From a candidate division WOR-3 bacterium (GTDB lineage: Bacteria > Hydrothermota > Tepidihabitantia > Tepidihabitantales > CAIPLT01): a stretch of 64,000 nt of DNA. Below are positions 3,001 to 53,482 of this stretch, piece after piece. The position numbers and the translations under genes are program-made. The stretch covers positions 3,108-67,107 of the forward strand of contig CBFGJZ010000006.1 of assembly GCA_965649215.1 (NCBI GenBank), written 5' to 3'. The notes beneath the pieces are model-generated. The model had not been told where the DNA came from. It did not search any database and saw nothing but the letters and a program-made list of their open reading frames with translations. The stretch's first letter is position 1, and each line of letters begins with the position of its first letter.

Positions 3001-3235
3001 GGTGAAAATTCTTGGAGATGAAGTGTTACGAACAATCGCAAGAGAGTTATTTGAAACCGTGAGAAGAAATATTACCATTGATTGGACATTGAGAGAAAAT
3101 GTTCAGGCAAAATTAAGGGTGATGGTCAAAAGAATATTAAAGAAATTCGGTTATCCGCCAGATAAACAGCAAAAAGCAACTGATTTGGTATTAGAACAAG
3201 CCAAAGTGATTTGTAAAGATTTAGTTGCCGCTTAA
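86..3235 (+). CDS. hsdR: Type I restriction-modification system endonuclease R subunit (HsdR); start ATG overlaps the stop of an upstream same-strand gene (probably hsdS or hsdM, outside window)
   Basis: 1049 aa; N-terminal HsdR-N-like region, DEAH helicase motif (IADEAHRSQ), motif VI-like QAIARVNR, typical length for type I R subunits. Confidence 0.85.
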
Positions 3236-3955: not shown

Positions 3956-4327
3956 ATGGGTGTTAGACCAGCATCAAGACGATTAGAAAAATGGGATAAT
4001 AACTTTTCGGGTGATGTTTTATCAGAACGAATGAAGAATTATAAAGATAAGATGCGCGAACAACTCTCTAATATCTTTCCCTTGCAAGAGACCTTAGAAA
4101 ATGAAGTTAAGACCATTCTTGCTGAAGCCGGTACTTCCACAGTCTTAAATCCTGCGTACTTGAATTTTGGGCGAGAAGTGTTAAAACTCTGCCAAAAGTT
4201 TTCGGGTGGCCAGTTGATTAATGCTGTGGATGTCGTGTTGAATAAATGGGTGGCACGAGCATTAGACCGTGATATTTTAGAGCGCATTCGTAATACGGTC
4301 TTTGCGTTAGTTGGACCATCGCCATAA
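3956..4327 (+). CDS. Hypothetical protein (123 aa) with strong Shine-Dalgarno AAAGGAGGTGA
   Basis: Intact ORF, canonical RBS 8 nt upstream, GC-elevated; no recognisable domain. Confidence 0.55.
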   Translation: MGVRPASRRLEKWDNNFSGDVLSERMKNYKDKMREQLSNIFPLQETLENEVKTILAEAGTSTVLNPAYLNFGREVLKLCQKFSGGQLINAVDVVLNKWVARALDRDILERIRNTVFALVGPSP

Positions 4328-4349
4328 GAATTTAATAAATATAATACTA

Positions 4350-4671
4350 CTGTCGGTAAGATTGCTTCAGTCGCTTCACTCCTTCGCAATGACAAAAACG
4401 GGACTGTATGTAAGATTGCTTCAGTCGCTTTGCTCCTTCGCAATGACTAAAGGGTAAATGTCATTGCGAGCGAATGTAATGAGCGTGGCAATCTTGCCGA
4501 CAGTGAGAAAAAGAGAATACAAAGACACTATGATGATTAAGGGATTTTTACCGGCTGTAAGATTGCTTCAGTCGCTTTGCTCCTTCGCAATGACAAAAAC
4601 GGGACTGTATGTAAGATTGCTTCAGTCGCTTTGCTCCTTCGCACTGACGAGACTTGGAGTCTTGCCGACAG
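4350..4671. repeat. Cluster of palindromic repeat units. Four direct copies of a 38-nt unit (gtaagattgcttcagtcgctttgctccttcgcaatgac) lie at 4356-4393, 4410-4447, 4557-4594 and 4611-4648. The first two and the last two are each separated by an identical 16-nt spacer. An inverted, diverged copy lies at 4460-4505, and the cluster is bounded by ctgtcgg / ccgacag terminal inverted sequences.
   Basis: Read directly from the sequence. The spacer aaaaacgggactgtat is identical at 4394-4409 and 4595-4610. The same unit recurs at 8945-8982. Confidence 0.85.
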
Positions 4672-4684
4672 TAAAGATTAAATA

Positions 4685-5314
4685 ATGCGTAATAGTTATA
4701 AGAATTTTATTGTGCTTTGCGAAAGGGATATTCGCAAGCATTTTGAAATCTCGTATAATTCTGTATTAGTCCTACGCCAAATCTTTTTCTACCAACAAGG
4801 CAACTTAAAGAAGTGTATTGCATCAAAACCGACCTTATGTAAGCATGCGCAGATTTCCAAACGCTCGTTATATTATTGCTTAAAAGAACTGCAACTTAAA
4901 AATCTTATTCATCGCCAGCGCCGAAGTATTATCGTCAGCAATACTTTTTTACGCTATCTCAAGTATCTTTACGAACTATACGAACGCTGTTTAACTTGGG
5001 CCGAATTTCATAAAATTAAACTCCAATGGTTCTGGAAGAGATGCGGCCAAAGTATGGAAAAGTTATTCTGTTATCTTCGGGGTAATAGTGAGACTTGCAC
5101 TTATCAGTTAAAAAAATTGCACCCTAACAGTAGATTAAACTCTTCTCATGAGTTTAATATGAACAGTAGAAGCCGTCTTCGTTTGCGGTTATTAATCCAA
5201 CAAGAATTAGAGCGCTTATCCGCTCATGAATTAAAGCAATTATATTTAGATAAACTGAATAATACCCGAAGTTTACAAAAGATTAGTATTAATAGTTTAT
5301 CGGTATTGAGATGA
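4685..5314 (+). CDS. Hypothetical protein with a predicted helix-turn-helix (…CKHAQISKRSLYYCLKELQLKNLI…); start uncertain and no clear RBS
   Basis: Intact 209-aa ORF directly 5' of the ECF sigma gene; HTH-like segment; basic, Cys/Tyr-rich. Confidence 0.4.
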   Translation: MRNSYKNFIVLCERDIRKHFEISYNSVLVLRQIFFYQQGNLKKCIASKPTLCKHAQISKRSLYYCLKELQLKNLIHRQRRSIIVSNTFLRYLKYLYELYERCLTWAEFHKIKLQWFWKRCGQSMEKLFCYLRGNSETCTYQLKKLHPNSRLNSSHEFNMNSRSRLRLRLLIQQELERLSAHELKQLYLDKLNNTRSLQKISINSLSVLR

Positions 5315-5923: not shown

Positions 5924-6946
5924 ATGAAAAACATAATAATCGCCATAAGTCTCATTATGGTATCGGTTTTGCCAATGCGAGCCCAAGAAAGCGAACCGTT
6001 ATTTTTAGTTATGCAAGACGGTCTCTATGGTTATATTAATAAAAAGGGTGAAATTAAAATTGAGCCCCAATTTGAACTTGCGCGGGATTTTTCCGAAGGA
6101 TTAGCAGTGGTCGGCATTGATGATCGGTTTGGATTTATTGATATGACCGGCAAATTAGTCATTCCTGCTGAATTTGACGAAGTTAAGGATTTTTCCGAAG
6201 GATTGGCGGCCGTAAGTACTACTACCCGCACCGGCTTTATCAATAAAAAGGGTGAATGGGTGATTGATAAATATTTTTATATGCCTTTATCTGACCTTCG
6301 CTTTAAAGAAGGACTGTGTGCTATCAGAGTCAGTGATAAATACGGCTATTGGGATAAGACCGGCAAGACGGTTATTGATTATAAATATGATTATGCTGCC
6401 AATTTTAATGAAGGCTTGGCAAAAGTGCGAATTAAAAAAACATATGAAGAAAAAGACGGCTTTATTGATAAAAAGGGTAAAGTCGTTGTGCCGATTGAAT
6501 ATGATATGGTCTTAGATTTTTCTGAAGGGCGGGCTGCCGTCAAAAAAGACCGCGAGTGGAGTTATATTGATAAAAATAATAAGACCGTCTTAACTACTGA
6601 GTATGAAGATGTCGGCAGTTTTCACGAAGGATTGGCAAAGTTTAAAGACTCAGATGAAAAATACGGCTTTATCAATACCAAAGGCGAAGTCGTAATTGAA
6701 GCACAGTTTGACCATGTTGATGACTTTTCTGAAGGACTGGCAGGATTCTGGAATGAAGAGTGGAATGATGAGCTCTATGACTATGAATACCTATATGGCT
6801 ATATCAATACCAAAGGCGAAGTCGTAATTGAACCTAATTATGAGATTGCCTATAAATTTAAACACGGCATTGCCAAAGTAGAAGTTGATGGCAAAATCGG
6901 ATATATTGATAAAAACGGCAAATATATCTGGCCCCCAAGCGAATAA
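5924..6946 (+). CDS. Secreted WG-repeat (KWG/Leptospira-type) protein with N-terminal signal peptide
   Basis: About ten tandem ~30-aa repeats of the form YG(Y/F)I(N/D)KKGEVVIEPQF…DFSEGLA(A/V)V; hydrophobic N-terminus. Confidence 0.75.
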   Translation: MKNIIIAISLIMVSVLPMRAQESEPLFLVMQDGLYGYINKKGEIKIEPQFELARDFSEGLAVVGIDDRFGFIDMTGKLVIPAEFDEVKDFSEGLAAVSTTTRTGFINKKGEWVIDKYFYMPLSDLRFKEGLCAIRVSDKYGYWDKTGKTVIDYKYDYAANFNEGLAKVRIKKTYEEKDGFIDKKGKVVVPIEYDMVLDFSEGRAAVKKDREWSYIDKNNKTVLTTEYEDVGSFHEGLAKFKDSDEKYGFINTKGEVVIEAQFDHVDDFSEGLAGFWNEEWNDELYDYEYLYGYINTKGEVVIEPNYEIAYKFKHGIAKVEVDGKIGYIDKNGKYIWPPSE

Positions 6947-7039: not shown

Positions 7040-8659
7040 ATGTGGGCTTTAAAGCCGATTGATTCAGAAGAACGGGCATTAGCATTAGCAAACGAACTTA
7101 AAATTCATCCTGCGTTGGCACGGGTTCTCTATGTGCGGGATATTAAGACAGTTGAGCAAGCCAATAAGTTTTTTAATGCAACCTTAAATGACCTTTACCC
7201 GTATCATGCATTACCTGATATTGATAAGGCAATTGAACGGATTATTTCTGCCATTAAGCGCAAAGAGAAGATTGTTATCTGGGGTCATGAGGATTTAGAC
7301 GGCATAACTTCAGTAGTAATCTTATATGAGACCATCAAGGCATTACAAGGCCAACCAATGTACCATATTCCATCCAAAGGTAAGGATAAGCACGGGTTAA
7401 GTGTGGAAAAAGCCCAAGAATTTGCTCAAAATGGTGTCAAATTGATTATTACGGTTGATTGTGGTATTACTAATCTTAAAGAGATTGATGAGATTAATAA
7501 ATTGGGGATAGATGTGATTATCACTGACCATCATGAAATATTAGATAGGCTACCTAATGCGATTGCCAATATTGACCCAAAACGACCAGATTCTCCTTAT
7601 CCCTTCCAATTTTTAGCCGGTTGTGGCATTGCGTTTAAGTTAGCAGTCGGTTTAGTTGATAAATGCTTAAATGTTAATATTAACGAATTACTTGCCTTAA
7701 AACCTGATTTTTTAGCCTATCTGGCATTAGGTACAATTAGTGATCGGGTGCCATTGGTTGATGAGAATCGAATTTTAGCAAAATATGGTTGGCAACAATT
7801 CCAAAAGGTTAAAAATCCTGCGATTTTAGCAATTTTAGAGATTAGTAAGATTAATCCATCAAAAATGACTTATGAGCAGTTTTTTTCAGATATCGTACCA
7901 ATCTTTTCATCTGCTAATGGTAATTTGGCATGCGAATACTTTTTACATAAAGATTATCAAGACTGTTTGAACTGGGTAAGTGAATTATTAGCCCAAAGCC
8001 AAGCCTGGCAAAAAGAAGCCCGTGAAAATTTAGCATTAGCCGAAGAGATTGCTGATATCACACCGGGTATTATCTTTGTCCGAGACGAACGGCTATCTTT
8101 ACGGGTTTTAGGCCATATTGCCGGTAAGTTAAAAGACCGCTATCAATTGCCAACCTTGGTCTTAGGTTATAAAAATGGCGATTGGGTAGGCGAATGTCGG
8201 GGCATAAATGGGGTTGATTTAATTGCGCTTCTTAAAGCCCATAGTAATTATTTTAGTGCTTATGGCGGACATAAAAAAGCCTGTGGCTTTACAATTGCTG
8301 ATAAAGATGTCCAGAAATTTATTAAAAGTGCGAAAAAATATGCCAAAGAGCATTTTGTCGGTAATATTATCTCAGAGAATAAAGTCGCACCTGAAGCAAT
8401 CCTTCCCTTAAATGAACTTAAAGAAGACTTCTTATCTTTAATGCCTTTTGGAGAAAATAATCCCACCCCGATTTTAATCAGTCCTAACACAACCATTATC
8501 AGCACAAATTATCGTTTTATCCTACCCGAACGGAATGATTTAGAGATCATTAATAATACGGAACAGTCGTTTAATCATGATAAGATTAATGGCAATCTGC
8601 TCTATACTTTTAATGAGCAATTGGTCGTCTCAGTACTTAAGATAGAAAAGAATAATTAA
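7040..8659 (+). CDS. recJ: Single-stranded-DNA-specific exonuclease RecJ (DHH/DHHA1 phosphoesterase)
   Basis: DHH motifs (GHEDLDGITS, ITDHHE), DHHA1 GGHKKACG, length 539 aa. Confidence 0.8.
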   Translation: MWALKPIDSEERALALANELKIHPALARVLYVRDIKTVEQANKFFNATLNDLYPYHALPDIDKAIERIISAIKRKEKIVIWGHEDLDGITSVVILYETIKALQGQPMYHIPSKGKDKHGLSVEKAQEFAQNGVKLIITVDCGITNLKEIDEINKLGIDVIITDHHEILDRLPNAIANIDPKRPDSPYPFQFLAGCGIAFKLAVGLVDKCLNVNINELLALKPDFLAYLALGTISDRVPLVDENRILAKYGWQQFQKVKNPAILAILEISKINPSKMTYEQFFSDIVPIFSSANGNLACEYFLHKDYQDCLNWVSELLAQSQAWQKEARENLALAEEIADITPGIIFVRDERLSLRVLGHIAGKLKDRYQLPTLVLGYKNGDWVGECRGINGVDLIALLKAHSNYFSAYGGHKKACGFTIADKDVQKFIKSAKKYAKEHFVGNIISENKVAPEAILPLNELKEDFLSLMPFGENNPTPILISPNTTIISTNYRFILPERNDLEIINNTEQSFNHDKINGNLLYTFNEQLVVSVLKIEKNN

Positions 8660-8681
8660 ATATCTCCTGTAAAAATACTAG

Positions 8682-8988
8682 GCAAAGACATTATGCAAGG
8701 TAACCTATGTCATGCTGAATTTATTTCAGCATCTCAAGGCCATAGACCTTGAAACAAGTTCAGGGCGACAGTTAAGTATAGCAAATTCAGGGTGACAGTT
8801 AGGAAGACAACAAATAATAAAAGACACGAAGATACAAAGTAATATGTCATTGCGCTGTTGCCGAAAGGCAACCCTGGCAATCTTGCCGACAGTGAAAATC
8901 AGATAACATAAAGACACTAAGATGATTAAGGGACTTTTACCGGCTGTAAGATTGCTTCAGTCGTTTCACTCCTTCGCAAAGACATTAT
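8682..8988. repeat. Second locus of the palindromic repeat family. A complete ~137-nt element sits at 8846-8982: an inverted arm gtcattgcg…ggcaatcttgccgacagtg, a conserved core …aagacactaagatgattaagggacttttaccggct, then the 38-nt unit. The 14-bp direct repeat gcaaagacattatg at 8682-8695 and 8975-8988 flanks a region containing related fragments.
   Basis: The core and arms align with 4460-4594. The 14-mer duplication is read directly from the sequence. A local hairpin lies at 8709-8730 (atgctgaa-tttat-ttcagcat). Confidence 0.8.
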
Positions 8989-9045
8989 GTTTTAGATTGA
9001 ATTTGACATTTATTTGGATTATGATTATCATTTTATTGAGAAATT

Positions 9046-10203
9046 ATGGATAAGATTTACACCGTCCGCAAGAAAACCCGACGCAATCATTTCTGGGTCT
9101 TTTCCAATGAAATTAAGAGAATTGAAGGTAATCCTCAAAGTGGGGATACGGTTTTAGTTTATGACCACGATAAGTTTATTGGTTCCGGTATTTATAATCC
9201 GCATTCTTTAATTAGCATCCGTCTCTATGACCGCCAAGAACGATTGTTGGATAAAGCATTTTTTATTGAAAAGATTCAAAAAGCCCTTACTTATCGTAAA
9301 GCAGTCCTACCTAATGAAACTGATTATCGGTTAGTATATGGTGAAAGTGATGGGCTCCCCGGCGTTGTTCTTGACCGCTATCAAAATAGTTTTGCTTTAC
9401 AAACTTATTCTATTGGGATGGAGAAAAGACATGATTTGATTATTCAAGCCCTAACTGAATTATTGCCGGTTGATTGTGTCGTGGCTAAAAATGACTTTCG
9501 CCTGCGTGATGCCGAAGGACTGGATCGATACGAAAGAGTTATTTATGGTCAAGCCACATCAGTCATTATCTCTGAAAATAAGGTTAAATATTATGTGGAT
9601 TTAATGCAAGGCCAAAAGACCGGCTTTTATTATGACCAACGCATTACCCGTGCTAAAGTCCGCGCTTTAAGTGAAAATAAAGATGTTTTAGATGTCTTCT
9701 GCTATACCGGTGGTTTTGCGATCAATGCTGCGTTAGGAAATGCGAAGTCGGTTTTAGCAATTGATGCTTCGCAATCGGCTATTGAGTTAGCAATAGCAAA
9801 TGCAAAATTGAATGGCGTCGATAAAAAGATTAAATTTTTAGTTAGCGATGCTTTTATCGGTTTACGACAATTAGTTAAAGAAAGACAGCGATTTGATTTA
9901 ATCAACCTTGACCCACCACCATTCTTTAAATCCCAAAAAGAGAAAAAACAGGGTCTGCGTGGTTATAAAGATATTAACTTACAAGCAATGAAACTCTTAA
10001 AAGACGGGGGTATTTTAGTTAGTTCGACCTGTTCCCATTATCTCTTTTGGCAGGATTTATTAGATGTCTTAAGCCAAGCCGCAGCCGATGTCAATAAGAC
10101 TTTTCGCATTATTGACCGCACGACCCAAGGACCTGACCACCCTGTTTTATTGAGTATGCCCGAGAGTGAATATCTGAGATGTTATTTTTTAGAAGTCCAT
10201 TAA
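9046..10203 (+). CDS. rlmI: Class I SAM-dependent 23S rRNA (m5C) methyltransferase, RlmI/RlmK-like (PUA + MTase)
   Basis: N-terminal PUA-like region; SAM-binding motif (VLDVFCYTGGF); LDPPPF motif IV. Confidence 0.7.
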   Translation: MDKIYTVRKKTRRNHFWVFSNEIKRIEGNPQSGDTVLVYDHDKFIGSGIYNPHSLISIRLYDRQERLLDKAFFIEKIQKALTYRKAVLPNETDYRLVYGESDGLPGVVLDRYQNSFALQTYSIGMEKRHDLIIQALTELLPVDCVVAKNDFRLRDAEGLDRYERVIYGQATSVIISENKVKYYVDLMQGQKTGFYYDQRITRAKVRALSENKDVLDVFCYTGGFAINAALGNAKSVLAIDASQSAIELAIANAKLNGVDKKIKFLVSDAFIGLRQLVKERQRFDLINLDPPPFFKSQKEKKQGLRGYKDINLQAMKLLKDGGILVSSTCSHYLFWQDLLDVLSQAAADVNKTFRIIDRTTQGPDHPVLLSMPESEYLRCYFLEVH

Positions 10204-33879: not shown

Positions 33880-33952
33880 TACCCCTGGTGAGATTCGAAC
33901 TCACGACCTACGGTTTAGGAAACCGTCACTCTTTCCAACTGAGCTACAGGGG
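33880..33952 (-). tRNA. tRNA-Arg (anticodon CCT)
   Basis: Manually folded cloverleaf on the minus strand: acceptor GCCCCTG/CAGGGGT; D-arm GCTC…GAGT; anticodon stem ACGGT/ACCGT with loop TTCCTAA; T-arm GTGAG-TTCGAAT-CTCAC; discriminator A; CCA not encoded. Confidence 0.85.
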
Positions 33953-34000
33953 CTAATCATATCATTATATTAGATTAATAAATTCTGTCAATCAATTATC

Positions 34001-46389: not shown

Positions 46390-46643
46390 TTTAATATCCT
46401 AAGACTTTTAAATAATAAAAATCCCCGCTACAATTCGTGTAAGCAGGAGTCTTTGAACCCTAAAAACAAGTGGGCGTCATCGCTAATATTTTCTGTACGC
46501 AATAAAAGCTTACATCGACATCAGCATCAGACACCCAAACAATGGGTGTTAGCTCAAGACTTCATGGCTTATCACGAAGCGAGCAGGGAGTTAATCTCTA
46601 ATTCAAATAACAATTTACAAAAAGGTATTACTGTTATTTGAAT
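46390..46643 (-). ncRNA. Candidate structured non-coding RNA or leader in a GC-enriched intergenic region between zapA and rny (6S-RNA-like position by analogy with zapA-ssrS synteny; unverified)
   Basis: Local GC is clearly above the AT-rich intergenic norm. A 9-bp perfect hairpin lies at 46602-46638 (caaataaca…tgttatttg). No ORF is present. Confidence 0.25.
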
Positions 46644-50048: not shown

Positions 50049-51584
50049 TTAATGAAGCCTTTCTTGCCGAGCCTGAATTTTCCATTTCGATGTGTATGAT
50101 GAATTTAATCTAATACTTTTAGGTAATTTATGATTTTCCTCAAGATAATTATATAATGCTATAGTTATCGCAGCTATTTTATTAAAATCATTACTTTCTT
50201 GGTTATAAGTATTTCTTTCTGTTTCGATGTTCTCTTCTACAATTTCACCTTTTAAAAATTTAATTGCTATTTGAGGAAATAATGTATAAGTCATTAAATC
50301 TTCTTCTTCATGTCCTCTTCGTAGGAGATGTAAAGTTTCTACCTCTTGTTTTTTTACAGATAATTCCGGTTTTAATAAGTCAGCGGGTCGACAATCTATT
50401 GGTTTTTCATTACCAATGATTATTTTTAATATGTCTTTTTTAATTGTTGCCGGAGGTCTGCCATATAAACCCAAACAATAATCTTTAACTTCTTTACTAA
50501 TTTGTGAATATCGTTTACCTGATAATACATTCAATACGGCTTGAATACCTACAATTTGACTTGTTGGAGTAACTAAAGGTGGATATCCTAAATCTTCTCT
50601 TACTCTTGGTGTTTCCGCTAATACTTCTTGGTATTTATCTAGCGCATTTTGTTCTTTTAATTGTGCATGTAAATTTGAAAGCATTCCTCCCGGAATTTGA
50701 TGAACTGCTACTGATGCATCAGTCATTTCCGCAATTGGACTAATATATTTTGAATATTTCTTCTTCATGTCTAAAAAATAATAACCAACATTGATAATCT
50801 TTTTTATGTCGAGTTTCGTATCATAAGGACTATCTTGAAGACTCACGACAATATTTTCTAATGAGGGTTGCGAACTACCACCACTAAAAACTGATACTGC
50901 AGTATCAACAATGTCCACTCCCGCTTGAATGGCAGAATAATAACTTATCAATCCCATTCCACTGGTACAATGAGTGTGTAAATTAATTGGTACTTTTATA
51001 ATTTGTTTTAAAGCTTTCACTAATTCATAAGCTATGTGTGGTGAAATCAAACCAGCCATATCCTTTATACAGATATAATCACAACCCATCAATTCTAATT
51101 GATGACCCATTTCAACAAATTTTTCAATAGTGTGAACTGGACTTGTAGTATAACAAATCGTTCCTTGTACTTCGCTACCAAGATCTTTAGCGGTTTTAAT
51201 TGCTTTTTCCATATTCCGAATATCATTTAAAGCATCAAAAATTCTAAAAATATCAATCCCATGTTTTTTAGCTAACTTTATGAAATTTTCAACGACATCA
51301 TCAGCATAATGTCGATAACCCACAAGATTTTGGCCTCTGAGTAACATTAATAATTTTGTATTAGGTAAGTGTTCCCTTAATTTATCTAATCGAAACCAAG
51401 GATCTTCTGCTAAATAACGAATACAGACATCAAAAGTTGCGCCGCCCCAAACTTCCATTGCAAAAAATCCAATTTTATCCATTTGGTCACATATTGGTAT
51501 CATATCAGAAATTCTCATCCGGGTAGCCATCAATGATTGATGCGCATCACGAAAAGTAGTATCAATAATCTTTACGGTATTCAT
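50049..51584 (-). CDS. Oxaloacetate decarboxylase alpha / pyruvate carboxylase subunit B-type carboxyltransferase (5S) without fused biotin domain
   Basis: TIM-barrel carboxyltransferase N-terminus (IIDTTFRDAHQS) and conserved core; 511 aa. Confidence 0.8.
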   Translation of the reverse strand: MNTVKIIDTTFRDAHQSLMATRMRISDMIPICDQMDKIGFFAMEVWGGATFDVCIRYLAEDPWFRLDKLREHLPNTKLLMLLRGQNLVGYRHYADDVVENFIKLAKKHGIDIFRIFDALNDIRNMEKAIKTAKDLGSEVQGTICYTTSPVHTIEKFVEMGHQLELMGCDYICIKDMAGLISPHIAYELVKALKQIIKVPINLHTHCTSGMGLISYYSAIQAGVDIVDTAVSVFSGGSSQPSLENIVVSLQDSPYDTKLDIKKIINVGYYFLDMKKKYSKYISPIAEMTDASVAVHQIPGGMLSNLHAQLKEQNALDKYQEVLAETPRVREDLGYPPLVTPTSQIVGIQAVLNVLSGKRYSQISKEVKDYCLGLYGRPPATIKKDILKIIIGNEKPIDCRPADLLKPELSVKKQEVETLHLLRRGHEEEDLMTYTLFPQIAIKFLKGEIVEENIETERNTYNQESNDFNKIAAITIALYNYLEENHKLPKSIRLNSSYTSKWKIQARQERLH

Positions 51585-51604: not shown

Positions 51605-53482
51605 TTAAACCATAGGTTCTACTGTAAACAAAGGTTGTCCATATTCAACTGTTTGGCCATCTTTCGCTAATATTTCAACAATTCGACATTTTTTTTCAGC
51701 TTCAATTTCATTCATAAGTTTCATTGCTTCAATAATACATAACGTTGAACCTGCTTCTATAACATCATTAATATTAACAAAAGGTGGGGCATCGGGACGA
51801 GGGCGAGAATAAAAAGTTCCCACCATTGGTGATTTAATTTGTTCTAATGTATGTTTAGAGGAAGGAGTTTGAATTTCATTGATAACATCTGACTGTGGCT
51901 GAGATGGTGTATTAATTTTAGTAATTATTTGTGGTTCATTTGATATTTGTTGAGTAGGAACAGCATAGGTTTGATTAATTTTACGAATTTTAATTTTGTG
52001 ACCAGAGCATTCCCATTCTAATTCAGCTAAATTATGTTTCGCTGCTAATTCAATTAATTCTCTTATAACCTCCATATCATCTTTATTTTCTTGTTTCATA
52101 ATATTTTTCCCCTCATCTTGTTTTATAATTTCTAGTTTTTCTGGGTTATCTCTTGTTTCAAAAAAATTTATAGCAATTTCTGGAAATAATGCAAAAGTAA
52201 TAAAATCTTCTTCTTTTTTAATATATTTTGAATTAACTTCTTTTTTTATTTTATTTAATACTGGTTCCAATAAATTTGCTGGTCGTTGAGATATAGGCCG
52301 TTCATTACCAAGAATTTTACGTCGTATTGTATCTTTTATAGGAACTGGTGGTTTCCCATATAATCCTCGTACATAATCTTTAACTTCATTAGGAATTATT
52401 TTATATCTTTCATTAGTGAGAACATTGAATACTGCTTGTACACCAACTATTTGGCTAGTCGGAGTTACTAACGGTGGATACCCTAAGTCTTTTCGTACTT
52501 TAGGAACTTCTTCTAATACTTCTCTCAGACGATGTTCTGCATTTTGCTGTTTTAATTGAACTATAAGATTCGAAACCATTCCTCCTGGTATTTGATGAAT
52601 TGTAACCATTTCATCAATAATTTTATCATATTTTATATCACGTTTATTTTTGATTTGTTCTAAATAATTTGAGACCTCTTCGATTAAATTTTTATTCAGT
52701 TGTAATGTGTATTGGGTATTATCTAACATTGCAATTAAAGTTTCAATTGCTGGTTGAGAAGTTCCGAATGATAATGGTCCATGTGCCGTATCAACAATAT
52801 CTACTCCTGCTTCAATCGCTTTTAGATAACTAGCAACTGCCATTCCACTTGATGCATGAGTATGAAGTTGTACTGGTAATCTTATGTCCTCTTTTAAACG
52901 TTTAATCAATTCAAAAGAAATATGCGGGGCAAGAATTCCCGCCATATCTTTAATACAGATACTGTCTATTCCCAGATCAAGTTGTTTTTTAGCTATCTCT
53001 AAATAATATTCTATAGTATGAATAGGACTTATCGTGTAACATAAGGTACCTTGAGCATGCTTTTTATATTTTCTTACAAACTCTATTGCCTTTTCAATAT
53101 TACGAATGTCGTTTAAAGCATCAAAGATTCGAAAAATATCTATACCGCGTTCCACACTCTTTTCAATAAATGCTTCTAATAAATCATCAGGATAGTTCCG
53201 ATAACCGACAATATTTTGGCCACGCAACAACATCTGTAATTTCGTCTTTTTTACATATTTCTTTATTAAAGATAAACGTTCCCATGGATCTTCATATAAA
53301 TATCGCAAACACACATCAAATGTAGCTCCACCCCACATTTCCAATGACCAATAACCGATCTCGTCAATTTTTGATAAAATTGGTAATATTTCTTCTGTTT
53401 TCATTCGTGTTGCCCATAATGATTGATGAGCATCACGAAAGGTTGTATCGGTAATTTTAATTTGTTTTGATTTTGCAAGCAT
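51605..53482 (-). CDS. Paralogous carboxyltransferase (OadA/PycB-type) with fused C-terminal biotinyl domain
   Basis: ITDTTFRDAHQS N-terminus; C-terminal IEAMKLMNEI biotin motif; 625 aa. Confidence 0.8.
   Translation of the reverse strand: MLAKSKQIKITDTTFRDAHQSLWATRMKTEEILPILSKIDEIGYWSLEMWGGATFDVCLRYLYEDPWERLSLIKKYVKKTKLQMLLRGQNIVGYRNYPDDLLEAFIEKSVERGIDIFRIFDALNDIRNIEKAIEFVRKYKKHAQGTLCYTISPIHTIEYYLEIAKKQLDLGIDSICIKDMAGILAPHISFELIKRLKEDIRLPVQLHTHASSGMAVASYLKAIEAGVDIVDTAHGPLSFGTSQPAIETLIAMLDNTQYTLQLNKNLIEEVSNYLEQIKNKRDIKYDKIIDEMVTIHQIPGGMVSNLIVQLKQQNAEHRLREVLEEVPKVRKDLGYPPLVTPTSQIVGVQAVFNVLTNERYKIIPNEVKDYVRGLYGKPPVPIKDTIRRKILGNERPISQRPANLLEPVLNKIKKEVNSKYIKKEEDFITFALFPEIAINFFETRDNPEKLEIIKQDEGKNIMKQENKDDMEVIRELIELAAKHNLAELEWECSGHKIKIRKINQTYAVPTQQISNEPQIITKINTPSQPQSDVINEIQTPSSKHTLEQIKSPMVGTFYSRPRPDAPPFVNINDVIEAGSTLCIIEAMKLMNEIEAEKKCRIVEILAKDGQTVEYGQPLFTVEPMV

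Follow-up and report, generated by a model that had tools for sequence, protein, structure and literature searches.

Among the repeats described in bacteria, the closest counterparts of the element considered here are repetitive extragenic palindromic (REP) sequences and bacterial interspersed mosaic elements (BIMEs), as well as the REP doublets forming hairpins (REPINs) and their REP-associated tyrosine transposases (RAYTs), of E. coli, Pseudomonas, and Stenotrophomonas. The element lies between a recJ-like and an rlmI-like gene in a 64,000-nt stretch of DNA from a candidate division WOR-3 bacterium (GenBank assembly GCA_965649215.1, contig CBFGJZ010000006.1, forward-strand positions 3,108 to 67,107), hereafter the window, to whose numbering coordinates refer unless the label of another fetched locus (L001, L320, and so on) precedes them; it is built from units of a hairpin-repeat family. 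This family and the described systems share short imperfect-palindrome units with compensatory stem changes and high copy number, inverted doublets and tandem arrays with alternating linkers, an extragenic location, the lack of a target duplication, and a small nuclease gene bracketed by units alongside many gene-less copies. In contrast, the gene of the window family encodes a GIY-YIG nuclease of ~95 aa rather than a Y1 HUH transposase, and is often multi-copy (two within 1 kb in L125), the family carries no GTAG or CGTC tag, and its unit ends and one inner sequence are conserved over >10 phyla. REP/RAYT pairs have been described as lineage-specific and mostly vertically inherited.

Other described systems resemble the family in part. 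Miniature inverted-repeat transposable elements (MITEs) derived from insertion sequences likewise have inverted ends, a short noncoding spacer representing an internally deleted gene-bearing element, and a presence that varies among relatives; however, the window family has neither a DDE transposase nor a target-site duplication, and its ends are autonomous hairpins that are also found singly. Longer relatives with the same ends as the gene-less pairs do exist, and they encode the GIY-YIG nuclease, not a known transposase. GIY-YIG homing endonuclease genes (I-TevI, T4 seg) offer a parallel in that a selfish gene, multi-copy and horizontally spread, carries a GIY-YIG catalytic domain, and spread by break-induced repair is a plausible shared logic. 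Unlike them, the genes of the window family encode nothing beyond the catalytic domain and a short basic C-tail, lacking NUMOD and other DNA-binding domains, and they lie outside group I introns and phage gene clusters, bracketed by structured repeats. The stand-alone Slx1-like/UPF0213 GIY-YIG proteins (PDB 1zg2, 1ywl) belong to the same minimal fold family, from which the clade discussed here is set apart by its flanking repeats; a 2006 survey described prokaryotic Slx1-like proteins as the minimal GIY-YIG form with no known role and did not mention flanking repeats (PMC1564403, Dunin-Horkawicz et al. 2006). The ends of IS200/IS605 elements share subterminal hairpins, the lack of a target duplication, and strand asymmetry in folding, but the window family has no TnpA or TnpB, and its ends are inverted copies of one unit instead of distinct left and right ends. 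In the openly searchable literature, no link was found described between stand-alone GIY-YIG genes and prokaryotic REP-, REPIN-, or MITE-like repeats.

The recJ–rlmI intergenic region is bounded by a recJ-like open reading frame (ORF; DHH/DHHA1 domains, 7040-8659) and an rlmI-like ORF (PUA/SAM-methyltransferase domains, 9046-10203). At 8846-8983, it holds a 138-nt inverted pair of hairpin units on the plus strand, which corresponds, with a 1-nt offset, to the complete element of ~137 nt delimited in an earlier sequence-only reading. The pair begins with an R unit (8846-8882; GTCATTGCG-CT-GTTGCC GAAA GGCAAC-CCTG-GCAATC, also written GTCATTGCG-CT-GTTGCCGAAAGGCAAC-CCTG-GCAATC), the lineage-specific tail of which, TTGCCGACAGTG, extends to 8894. 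A spacer of 51 nt (8895-8945, plus strand) follows, and the pair ends with an F unit in the reverse-complement orientation (GATTGCTTCAGTCGTTTCACTCCTTCGCAAAGAC; 8946-8983 on the plus strand with its lead-in GTAA, the hairpin unit proper being 8950-8983), in which the first stem pair is broken (T.T). A first locus of the same family on the plus strand, 4348-4685, has the order F-F-R-spacer-F-F plus a partial R tail, with units at 4360-4393, 4414-4447, 4460-4493, 4561-4594, and 4615-4648. The 110 nt at 8875-8984 are 89% identical to 4486-4595 in this first locus, and the tail-to-tail pairs 8846-8882/8950-8983 and 4460-4493/4561-4594 each have 67 nt between their units. Across the 64 kb, the strict unit pattern matches solely seven units, those at 4360-4648 and 8846-8983.

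The inner 24-mer of the F unit was scanned against one genome per species, yielding at least 118 loci. Among the matches listed, the exact 24-mer occurs in cultured Christiangramia isolates, other Bacteroidota, Desulfobacterota/Syntrophales, Chloroflexota, Omnitrophota, Patescibacteria, Dadabacteria, Elusimicrobiota, Planctomycetota, Spirochaetota, Firmicutes, Atribacterota, Methylomirabilota, and Gammaproteobacteria. These matches indicate that the repeat family is real, is spread over >10 bacterial phyla, and is not species-specific. The unit consensus is (Y)GTCATTGCGA-inner-GCAATC(T/C)(C), with conservation dropping sharply at -1 and +2, and the basic unit is a hairpin of 24-48 nt in which a Y precedes GTC-ATTGC-GA, a variable self-complementary inner hairpin follows, and G(A/T/C)(A/G)-GCAAT-C(T/C)(C) closes the structure. 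As its inner part, a unit has the widespread AGGAGCGAAGCGACTGAA (the window F type) or a self-complementary sequence of 4-34 nt unrelated to it. Among 219 adjacent unit arrangements, RF accounts for 135, FR for 52, FF for 18, and RR for 14; tail-to-tail inverted pairs with their heads (GTCATTGCGA) outward thus predominate, either with a short lineage-specific spacer (typically 15-29 nt for RF) or as arrays of pairs. Long arrays occur in L206, L296, and L269, the first comprising ~20 pairs with a period of ~96 nt. The units are extragenic and lie between co-directional genes. Searching the literature by unit sequence strings returned primer coincidences only, and an Rfam scan of the window and 20 unit-rich loci gave nothing for the family at the gathering threshold and only chance-level eukaryotic matches at E <= 10.

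Clear family units were also seen between phage-like genes in IMG/VR viral contigs (e.g., L015, L056, L076, L014, and L039). In these contigs, about half of the matches to the generic pattern are chance occurrences within genes, and this pattern was used for the consensus and not for statistics. The unit-bearing viral-contig loci were not found to contain a GIY-YIG gene. Phages may carry units between hosts.

The history of the window block was read from relatives at the same gene pair; RecJ homologs point to a candidate division WOR-3 bacterium as the source. The recJ–rlmI spacer measures 19 nt in L321 and L322 (68% RecJ identity), 170 nt in L320 (88%), 386 nt in the window, and 437 nt in L001, a same-species contig (GCA_039801405.1; 100%). 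In L320, the spacer contains a single decayed R unit that is orthologous to 8846-8882. This series implies that the block is inserted DNA rather than a conserved recJ 3′ untranslated region, the alternative that had been named as fatal to a mobile origin if no other genomic copies existed; many other copies do exist in the genomes scanned with the 24-mer. The presence/absence comparison that had been proposed for this intergenic site bears out an insertion. Over ~530 aligned nt, L001 has one 51-nt R unit more than the window (ending in TTTCCCTTTTTGTCATTGTGAGCCGAAGGCGTGGCAATCTTGCCGACG; L001:2404-2454), located opposite window 8892/8893, and four substitutions clustered in the 20 nt after it; the other ~480 aligned nt contain one difference. 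The extra unit and clustered substitutions fit patch-wise copying from another genomic copy. A unit identical to the extra one was also observed in the viral contig L039. Together, these comparisons demonstrate, at the level of aligned sequence, that the window block was inserted and is built from units of the cross-phylum family, and the insertion at the recJ–rlmI site appears recent. That the block is an inserted gene-less member of the hairpin-repeat family is held with high confidence. The best overall explanation, regarded as probable, is that the locus is a pile-up of non-autonomous copies, in which the near-intact pair at 8846-8983 stands downstream of decayed fragments at ~8696-8845. 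Insertions in the WOR-3 lineage would have separated recJ from rlmI, and near-identical strains still differ at the block by a whole unit.

Covariation indicates selection on the unit hairpin. Of the cells in the 26-nt size class, 93.3% pair, and five of the seven pairs are changed on both sides (30 cells); the observed covariation score is not attained in any of 500 shuffles, and pairing falls to 17-57% in slid controls. Compensated outer-stem variants include ATCGC/GCGAT in 12 loci, ATTTC/GAAAT in eight, and ACTGC/GCAGT and ATTAC/GTAAT in seven each. Shuffled inner sequences fold less well than the native ones (p = 4e-34), and of the two complementary strands the purine-rich one folds better in 293 units versus 28 with RNA parameters and in 291 versus 29 with DNA parameters. 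Most terminal loops are GNA triloops and some are GNRA tetraloops, and tandem G.A pairs (GGAG/CGAC) are common. As separate matters, an intrinsic terminator was rejected upon finding no site with a GC-rich stem and T tract within 8560-9100, and a CRISPR array was rejected because most units are inverted and the spacers recur (identical linkers of 16-20 nt at the first locus). By inspection only, the conserved internal loop did not have the sequences required for a K-turn, group II intron domain V, attC, or hammerhead.

The protein partner of the family emerged from ORF clustering in the repeat-selected loci, in which one small recurrent family was found, 95-100 aa in length and consisting of a GIY-YIG domain only (PF01541), with generic ABC ATPases as the sole other result. 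All five GIY-YIG ORFs in these loci have units on both sides, at distances of 2-70 nt. An independent sample of 80 metagenome loci was fetched solely by similarity to the ~95-aa GIY-YIG protein; 60 of these loci have a unit within 150 nt to the left of the gene, 63 have one to the right, and 54 have units on both sides, compared with a background unit density of 0.29 per kb at >500 nt from the gene. With the strict pattern (background of 0.14 per kb), both-side units were found in 41 of 75 loci (binomial p ~1e-109). The GIY-YIG gene accounts for 48 of the 69 ORFs enclosed by units and is the sole recurrent one, all others being singletons. Minimal loci, such as L244, L248, L266, L303, L305, and L310, consist of R, 10-50 nt, the gene, 0-25 nt, and F, and nothing more. 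The same arrangement extends to cultured isolates, being found in Algibacter agarivorans, in the cyanobacterium Hydrocoleum sp. CS-953, and also in a 4.4-Mb contig. The F-type unit of the window itself lies 1 nt from the stop codon of the GIY-YIG gene in L182, and in the Christiangramia isolate L125 the cassette ends with a variant of this unit. These counts and arrangements demonstrate a tight and specific association, at the level of gene neighborhood, between the hairpin family and a minimal GIY-YIG nuclease gene. In the arrays of L296 and L269, the gene-less spacers begin and end with the same bases as the sequences flanking the gene, which shows, by sequence comparison, that gene-less inverted pairs have the same ends as gene-bearing ones.

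The GIY-YIG proteins are 90-108 aa long and comprise the GIY-YIG domain only. The catalytic Y, Y-x-G, R, H, and E vary little or not at all among 67 homologs, and a basic patch is located at the C terminus. The family is very large, with 7999 of 8000 scored candidates at E <= 1e-5, and the solved structures closest to it are those of UPF0213 proteins of unknown function (PDB 1zg2, 1ywl). In L324, a metagenome contig near-identical to L323 (Algibacter agarivorans), the last GIY-YIG codons and the stop lie inside an R unit, such that the unit supplies the C terminus of the protein. Separately, L125:5933-7470 (Christiangramia oceanisediminis GC03-9) was seen to carry two 97%-identical GIY-YIG copies, 1 kb apart, within an array of gene-less pairs; both have the context R, 1 nt, gene, 49 nt, decayed R, 29 nt, F, which suggests recent copying within this array. 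Most contigs with these genes are <2 kb, as expected from assembly breaks at flanking repeats, and counts of the gene and units based on metagenome-assembled genomes (MAGs) are probably underestimates.

The sequence-only reading had recognized a core of ~50 nt, conserved between the two window loci, and had suggested that it may be the functional part of the element. The likeness holds, since the 51-nt window spacer (...CAAAGACACTATG... / ...CCGGCTGTAA) is ~85-89% identical to 4506-4556. The core is lineage-specific, though: among the fetched loci it was found only in the window and L001, being absent from 321 others, and the corresponding spacer in other lineages is different and shorter. The hairpin units are the part conserved across phyla, and the spacer is the variable part of the family. 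In many other genomes, the GIY-YIG gene stands directly between units, in most cases at the spacer position. The core reads ATG ATT AAG GGA... with TAA directly before the F unit, and this ATG, few codons, and TAA would fit the remnant of a deleted gene.

These findings lead to a reading in which gene-less pairs, including that at 8846-8983, would be MITE-like or REPIN-like non-autonomous derivatives of GIY-YIG cassettes. Whether the GIY-YIG nuclease propagates the units is judged to be evenly balanced. In outline, the purine-rich strand of each unit would fold into a hairpin, or the pair would extrude as a cruciform; the hairpin ends would be recognized and nicked or cleaved by the GIY-YIG nuclease; and host recombination or repair would copy or relocate the pair with no target-site duplication. 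An action on hairpin or cruciform ends would be in keeping with Slx1, a eukaryotic relative of the nuclease that is established as structure-specific (see also PMC1564403). Taken one step further, the repeats and their gene-bearing relatives may represent a previously unrecognized class of prokaryotic mobile element, a proposal that is put forward tentatively: the only protein of such a class would be the ~95-aa Slx1-like GIY-YIG nuclease, its ends would be structured hairpins, and it would spread without target duplication and leave REP-like non-autonomous copies in >10 phyla, as a GIY-YIG counterpart of RAYT-REPIN. For the window element, this amounts to REP/REPIN-like repeats with a different partner nuclease. 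If the link is causal, it would constitute a second nuclease-repeat partnership beside RAYT-REPIN on another nuclease fold, provide a testable function for stand-alone bacterial GIY-YIG proteins (UPF0213/Slx1-like), the role of which has been open since at least 2006, and yield a compact structure-specific nuclease with a defined DNA hairpin substrate.

Several observations weigh against the overall explanation. No GIY-YIG gene was found in the 64-kb window or in 44 kb from L001 and the three relatives, 37 kb of it from the relatives. The evidence is an association, and the gene could instead home into pre-existing pairs; neither cut sites nor intermediates nor excision events were seen. The units around the gene are variably oriented (RF 28, FR 13, FF 6, RR 5), and in the metagenome sample the inner sequence of the window F type is rare, accounting for 6 of the 343 units near GIY-YIG genes. 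As regards the 14-mer discussed below, relative to L320 the window contains a 137-nt block (~8683-8819) with AAAGACA at both edges, possibly a 7-bp duplication or else a recombination site.

The rival that survives best takes up the homing argument, proposing that pairs present for some other reason serve the gene only as homing sites. The hairpins would be host-selected structural or regulatory elements (mRNA 3′-end stabilizers, insulators, or sites for nucleoid- or topoisomerase-type proteins) spread by recombination or horizontal transfer, and the GIY-YIG gene would be a separate homing-endonuclease-like parasite targeting them. It accommodates the fact that units far outnumber the gene and lie between co-directional genes, the better folding of one strand with its RNA-like GNRA loops and G.A motifs, and the variable orientation of the gene relative to the units. 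However, the units show no orientation bias with respect to flanking transcription (90 versus 84) and have no terminator-like T tracts. The near-identity of 24-34 nt in >10 phyla, the change in copy number between near-identical strains, and the absence from close relatives are better explained by selfish spread than by a host function. A host role for the hairpins is accordingly considered unlikely, though deserving of some weight.

That the repeats are classical REP/BIME or REPIN elements mobilized by a RAYT is improbable, even though the anatomy is the same (short imperfect palindromes, inverted doublets, tandem arrays, an extragenic location, and no target duplication). A search for Y1 transposases that covered the fetched loci (~1.7 Mb), of uncertain sensitivity, gave one Y1-like ORF (L156:3-770, IS200-like), 6 kb from the nearest unit, whereas the unit-flanked gene is GIY-YIG. 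In place of a GTAG or CGTC tag, the units have a conserved 5′ end in which Y precedes GTCA (that is, Y before GTCATTGCGA).

A third alternative concerns the 14-mer GCAAAGACATTATG, which occurs at 8682-8695, as first read, and again at 8976-8989, 1 nt downstream of the 8975-8988 originally assigned (both on the plus strand). The window contains exactly these two matches, and none of 100 shuffles contains two or more; the earlier judgment that the match exceeds chance is sound. It had been taken to suggest either a target-site-like duplication or a tandem truncated copy, and neither reading stands. Alignments of the flanks beyond the 14-mer copies, on either side, are no better than shuffles, and this lack of further similarity excludes a tandem truncated copy. 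As a target-site duplication, the 14-mer would mark the insertion of a discrete MITE-like element at 8696-8975. In favor of such an element are the exact match flanking a 280-nt segment, the end of homology at the 14-mer, and the location of copy 1 in flank sequence that is present in L320. Against this, copy 2 joins 6 nt of flank to the last 8 nt of the F-unit stem, which carry the same T-to-A variant of GCAATGAC; the 13-nt core of the 14-mer, CAAAGACAYTATG, has three perfect matches in the 64 kb, namely both 14-mer copies and one at 4520 inside the first-locus spacer; and 117 isolated pairs of the family showed no flanking duplication above the control of mismatched flanks. In addition, the segment between the copies holds the R unit that is already in place in L320, which argues that it was not inserted as one piece. 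The comparisons point to the conclusion that the 14-mer is not a target-site duplication, and a discrete element with such a duplication is very improbable.

A 2-mismatch version of CAAAGACAYTATG is also found in the spacer of the second locus, and the 14-mer resembles the unit head (CAAAGACA versus CAATGACA). It is probably a reused fragment of a lineage-specific spacer motif that mediated a local rearrangement, in the course of which the motif CAAAGACAYTATG would be joined to the F-unit head.

The remaining proposal, that the ~50-nt core encodes a small RNA or short peptide as the functional part, finds encouragement in the 85-89% identity of its two window copies and in the ATG and TAA noted above, but is highly improbable given that the core is confined to the window and L001, has no Rfam family match even at E <= 10, yielded no protein with the spurious-ORF query described below, and occupies the variable part of the family.

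Upstream of the pair at 8846-8983, the decayed portion of the block contains several smaller features, all on the plus strand, and the degenerate fragments reported there earlier can now be described individually. Copy 1 of the 14-mer (8682-8695) stands at the left edge of the ~137-nt block that L320 lacks. A diverged unit, GTC-ATGCTGAA-TTTAT-TTCAGCAT-CTC, follows at 8709-8735 and was assigned to the hairpin-repeat family by inspection; it retains the family 5′ GTCAT and 3′ ATCTC around a perfect 8-bp stem within GTCATGCTGAATTTATTTCAGCATCTC (arms 8712-8719 and 8725-8732), which is the local hairpin previously placed at 8709-8730. A small hairpin read directly from the sequence, AAGG-CCATAGA-CCTT, is located at 8736-8750. 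Two 20-nt direct repeats, CAA(G/A)TTCAGGG(C/T)GACAGTTA, at 8755-8774 and 8782-8801, resemble by inspection decayed 3′ tails of R units (cf. GCAATCTTGCCGACAGTGA). The motif AAAGACACGAAGAT (8820-8833), located upstream of the R unit and common to L320, recurs at 8910, the two copies having the form AAAGACAC(G/T)AAGAT.

Immediately outside the element, a promoter-like site (TTGACA-17-TATCAT, 11/12; 9003-9031, plus strand) is found 15 nt before the rlmI start. This strong promoter-like site is conserved in the 88% relative L320 and absent in the 68% relatives with 19-nt spacers. Genes that are 19 nt apart in those relatives are now separated, and the inserted DNA may have uncoupled recJ and rlmI.

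Repeats of this family also affect annotation. ORFs running through the repeat units, 4458-4685 (plus strand, 75 aa) and 4039-4443 (minus strand, 134 aa), encode peptides such as RLLQSLCSFAMT; both are almost certainly spurious and show how the family seeds false hypothetical proteins. A protein search with the 75-aa ORF across the first locus returned no match. More broadly, GTCATTGCGAGGAGCGAAGCGACGAAGCAATC-type sequences litter MAGs, break assemblies, and produce spurious ORFs (e.g., 4458-4685), and their recognition as one family with defined ends aids annotation.

Elsewhere in the window, an Rfam 15/ARAGORN scan gave no match on the repeat block, its sole matches being a 6S RNA (46418-46592, minus strand, 61 bits) and a tRNA-Arg(CCT) (33880-33953, minus strand). 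A 51-nt coding repeat occurs six times, at multiples of ~102 nt, in the ORF upstream of recJ (WG_beta_rep, 5924-6946). Two adjacent minus-strand ORFs, 50049-51584 and 51605-53482, have 55-67-nt stretches in common at 82-84% identity (50254-51265 versus 52161-53151) and are probably tandem paralogs.

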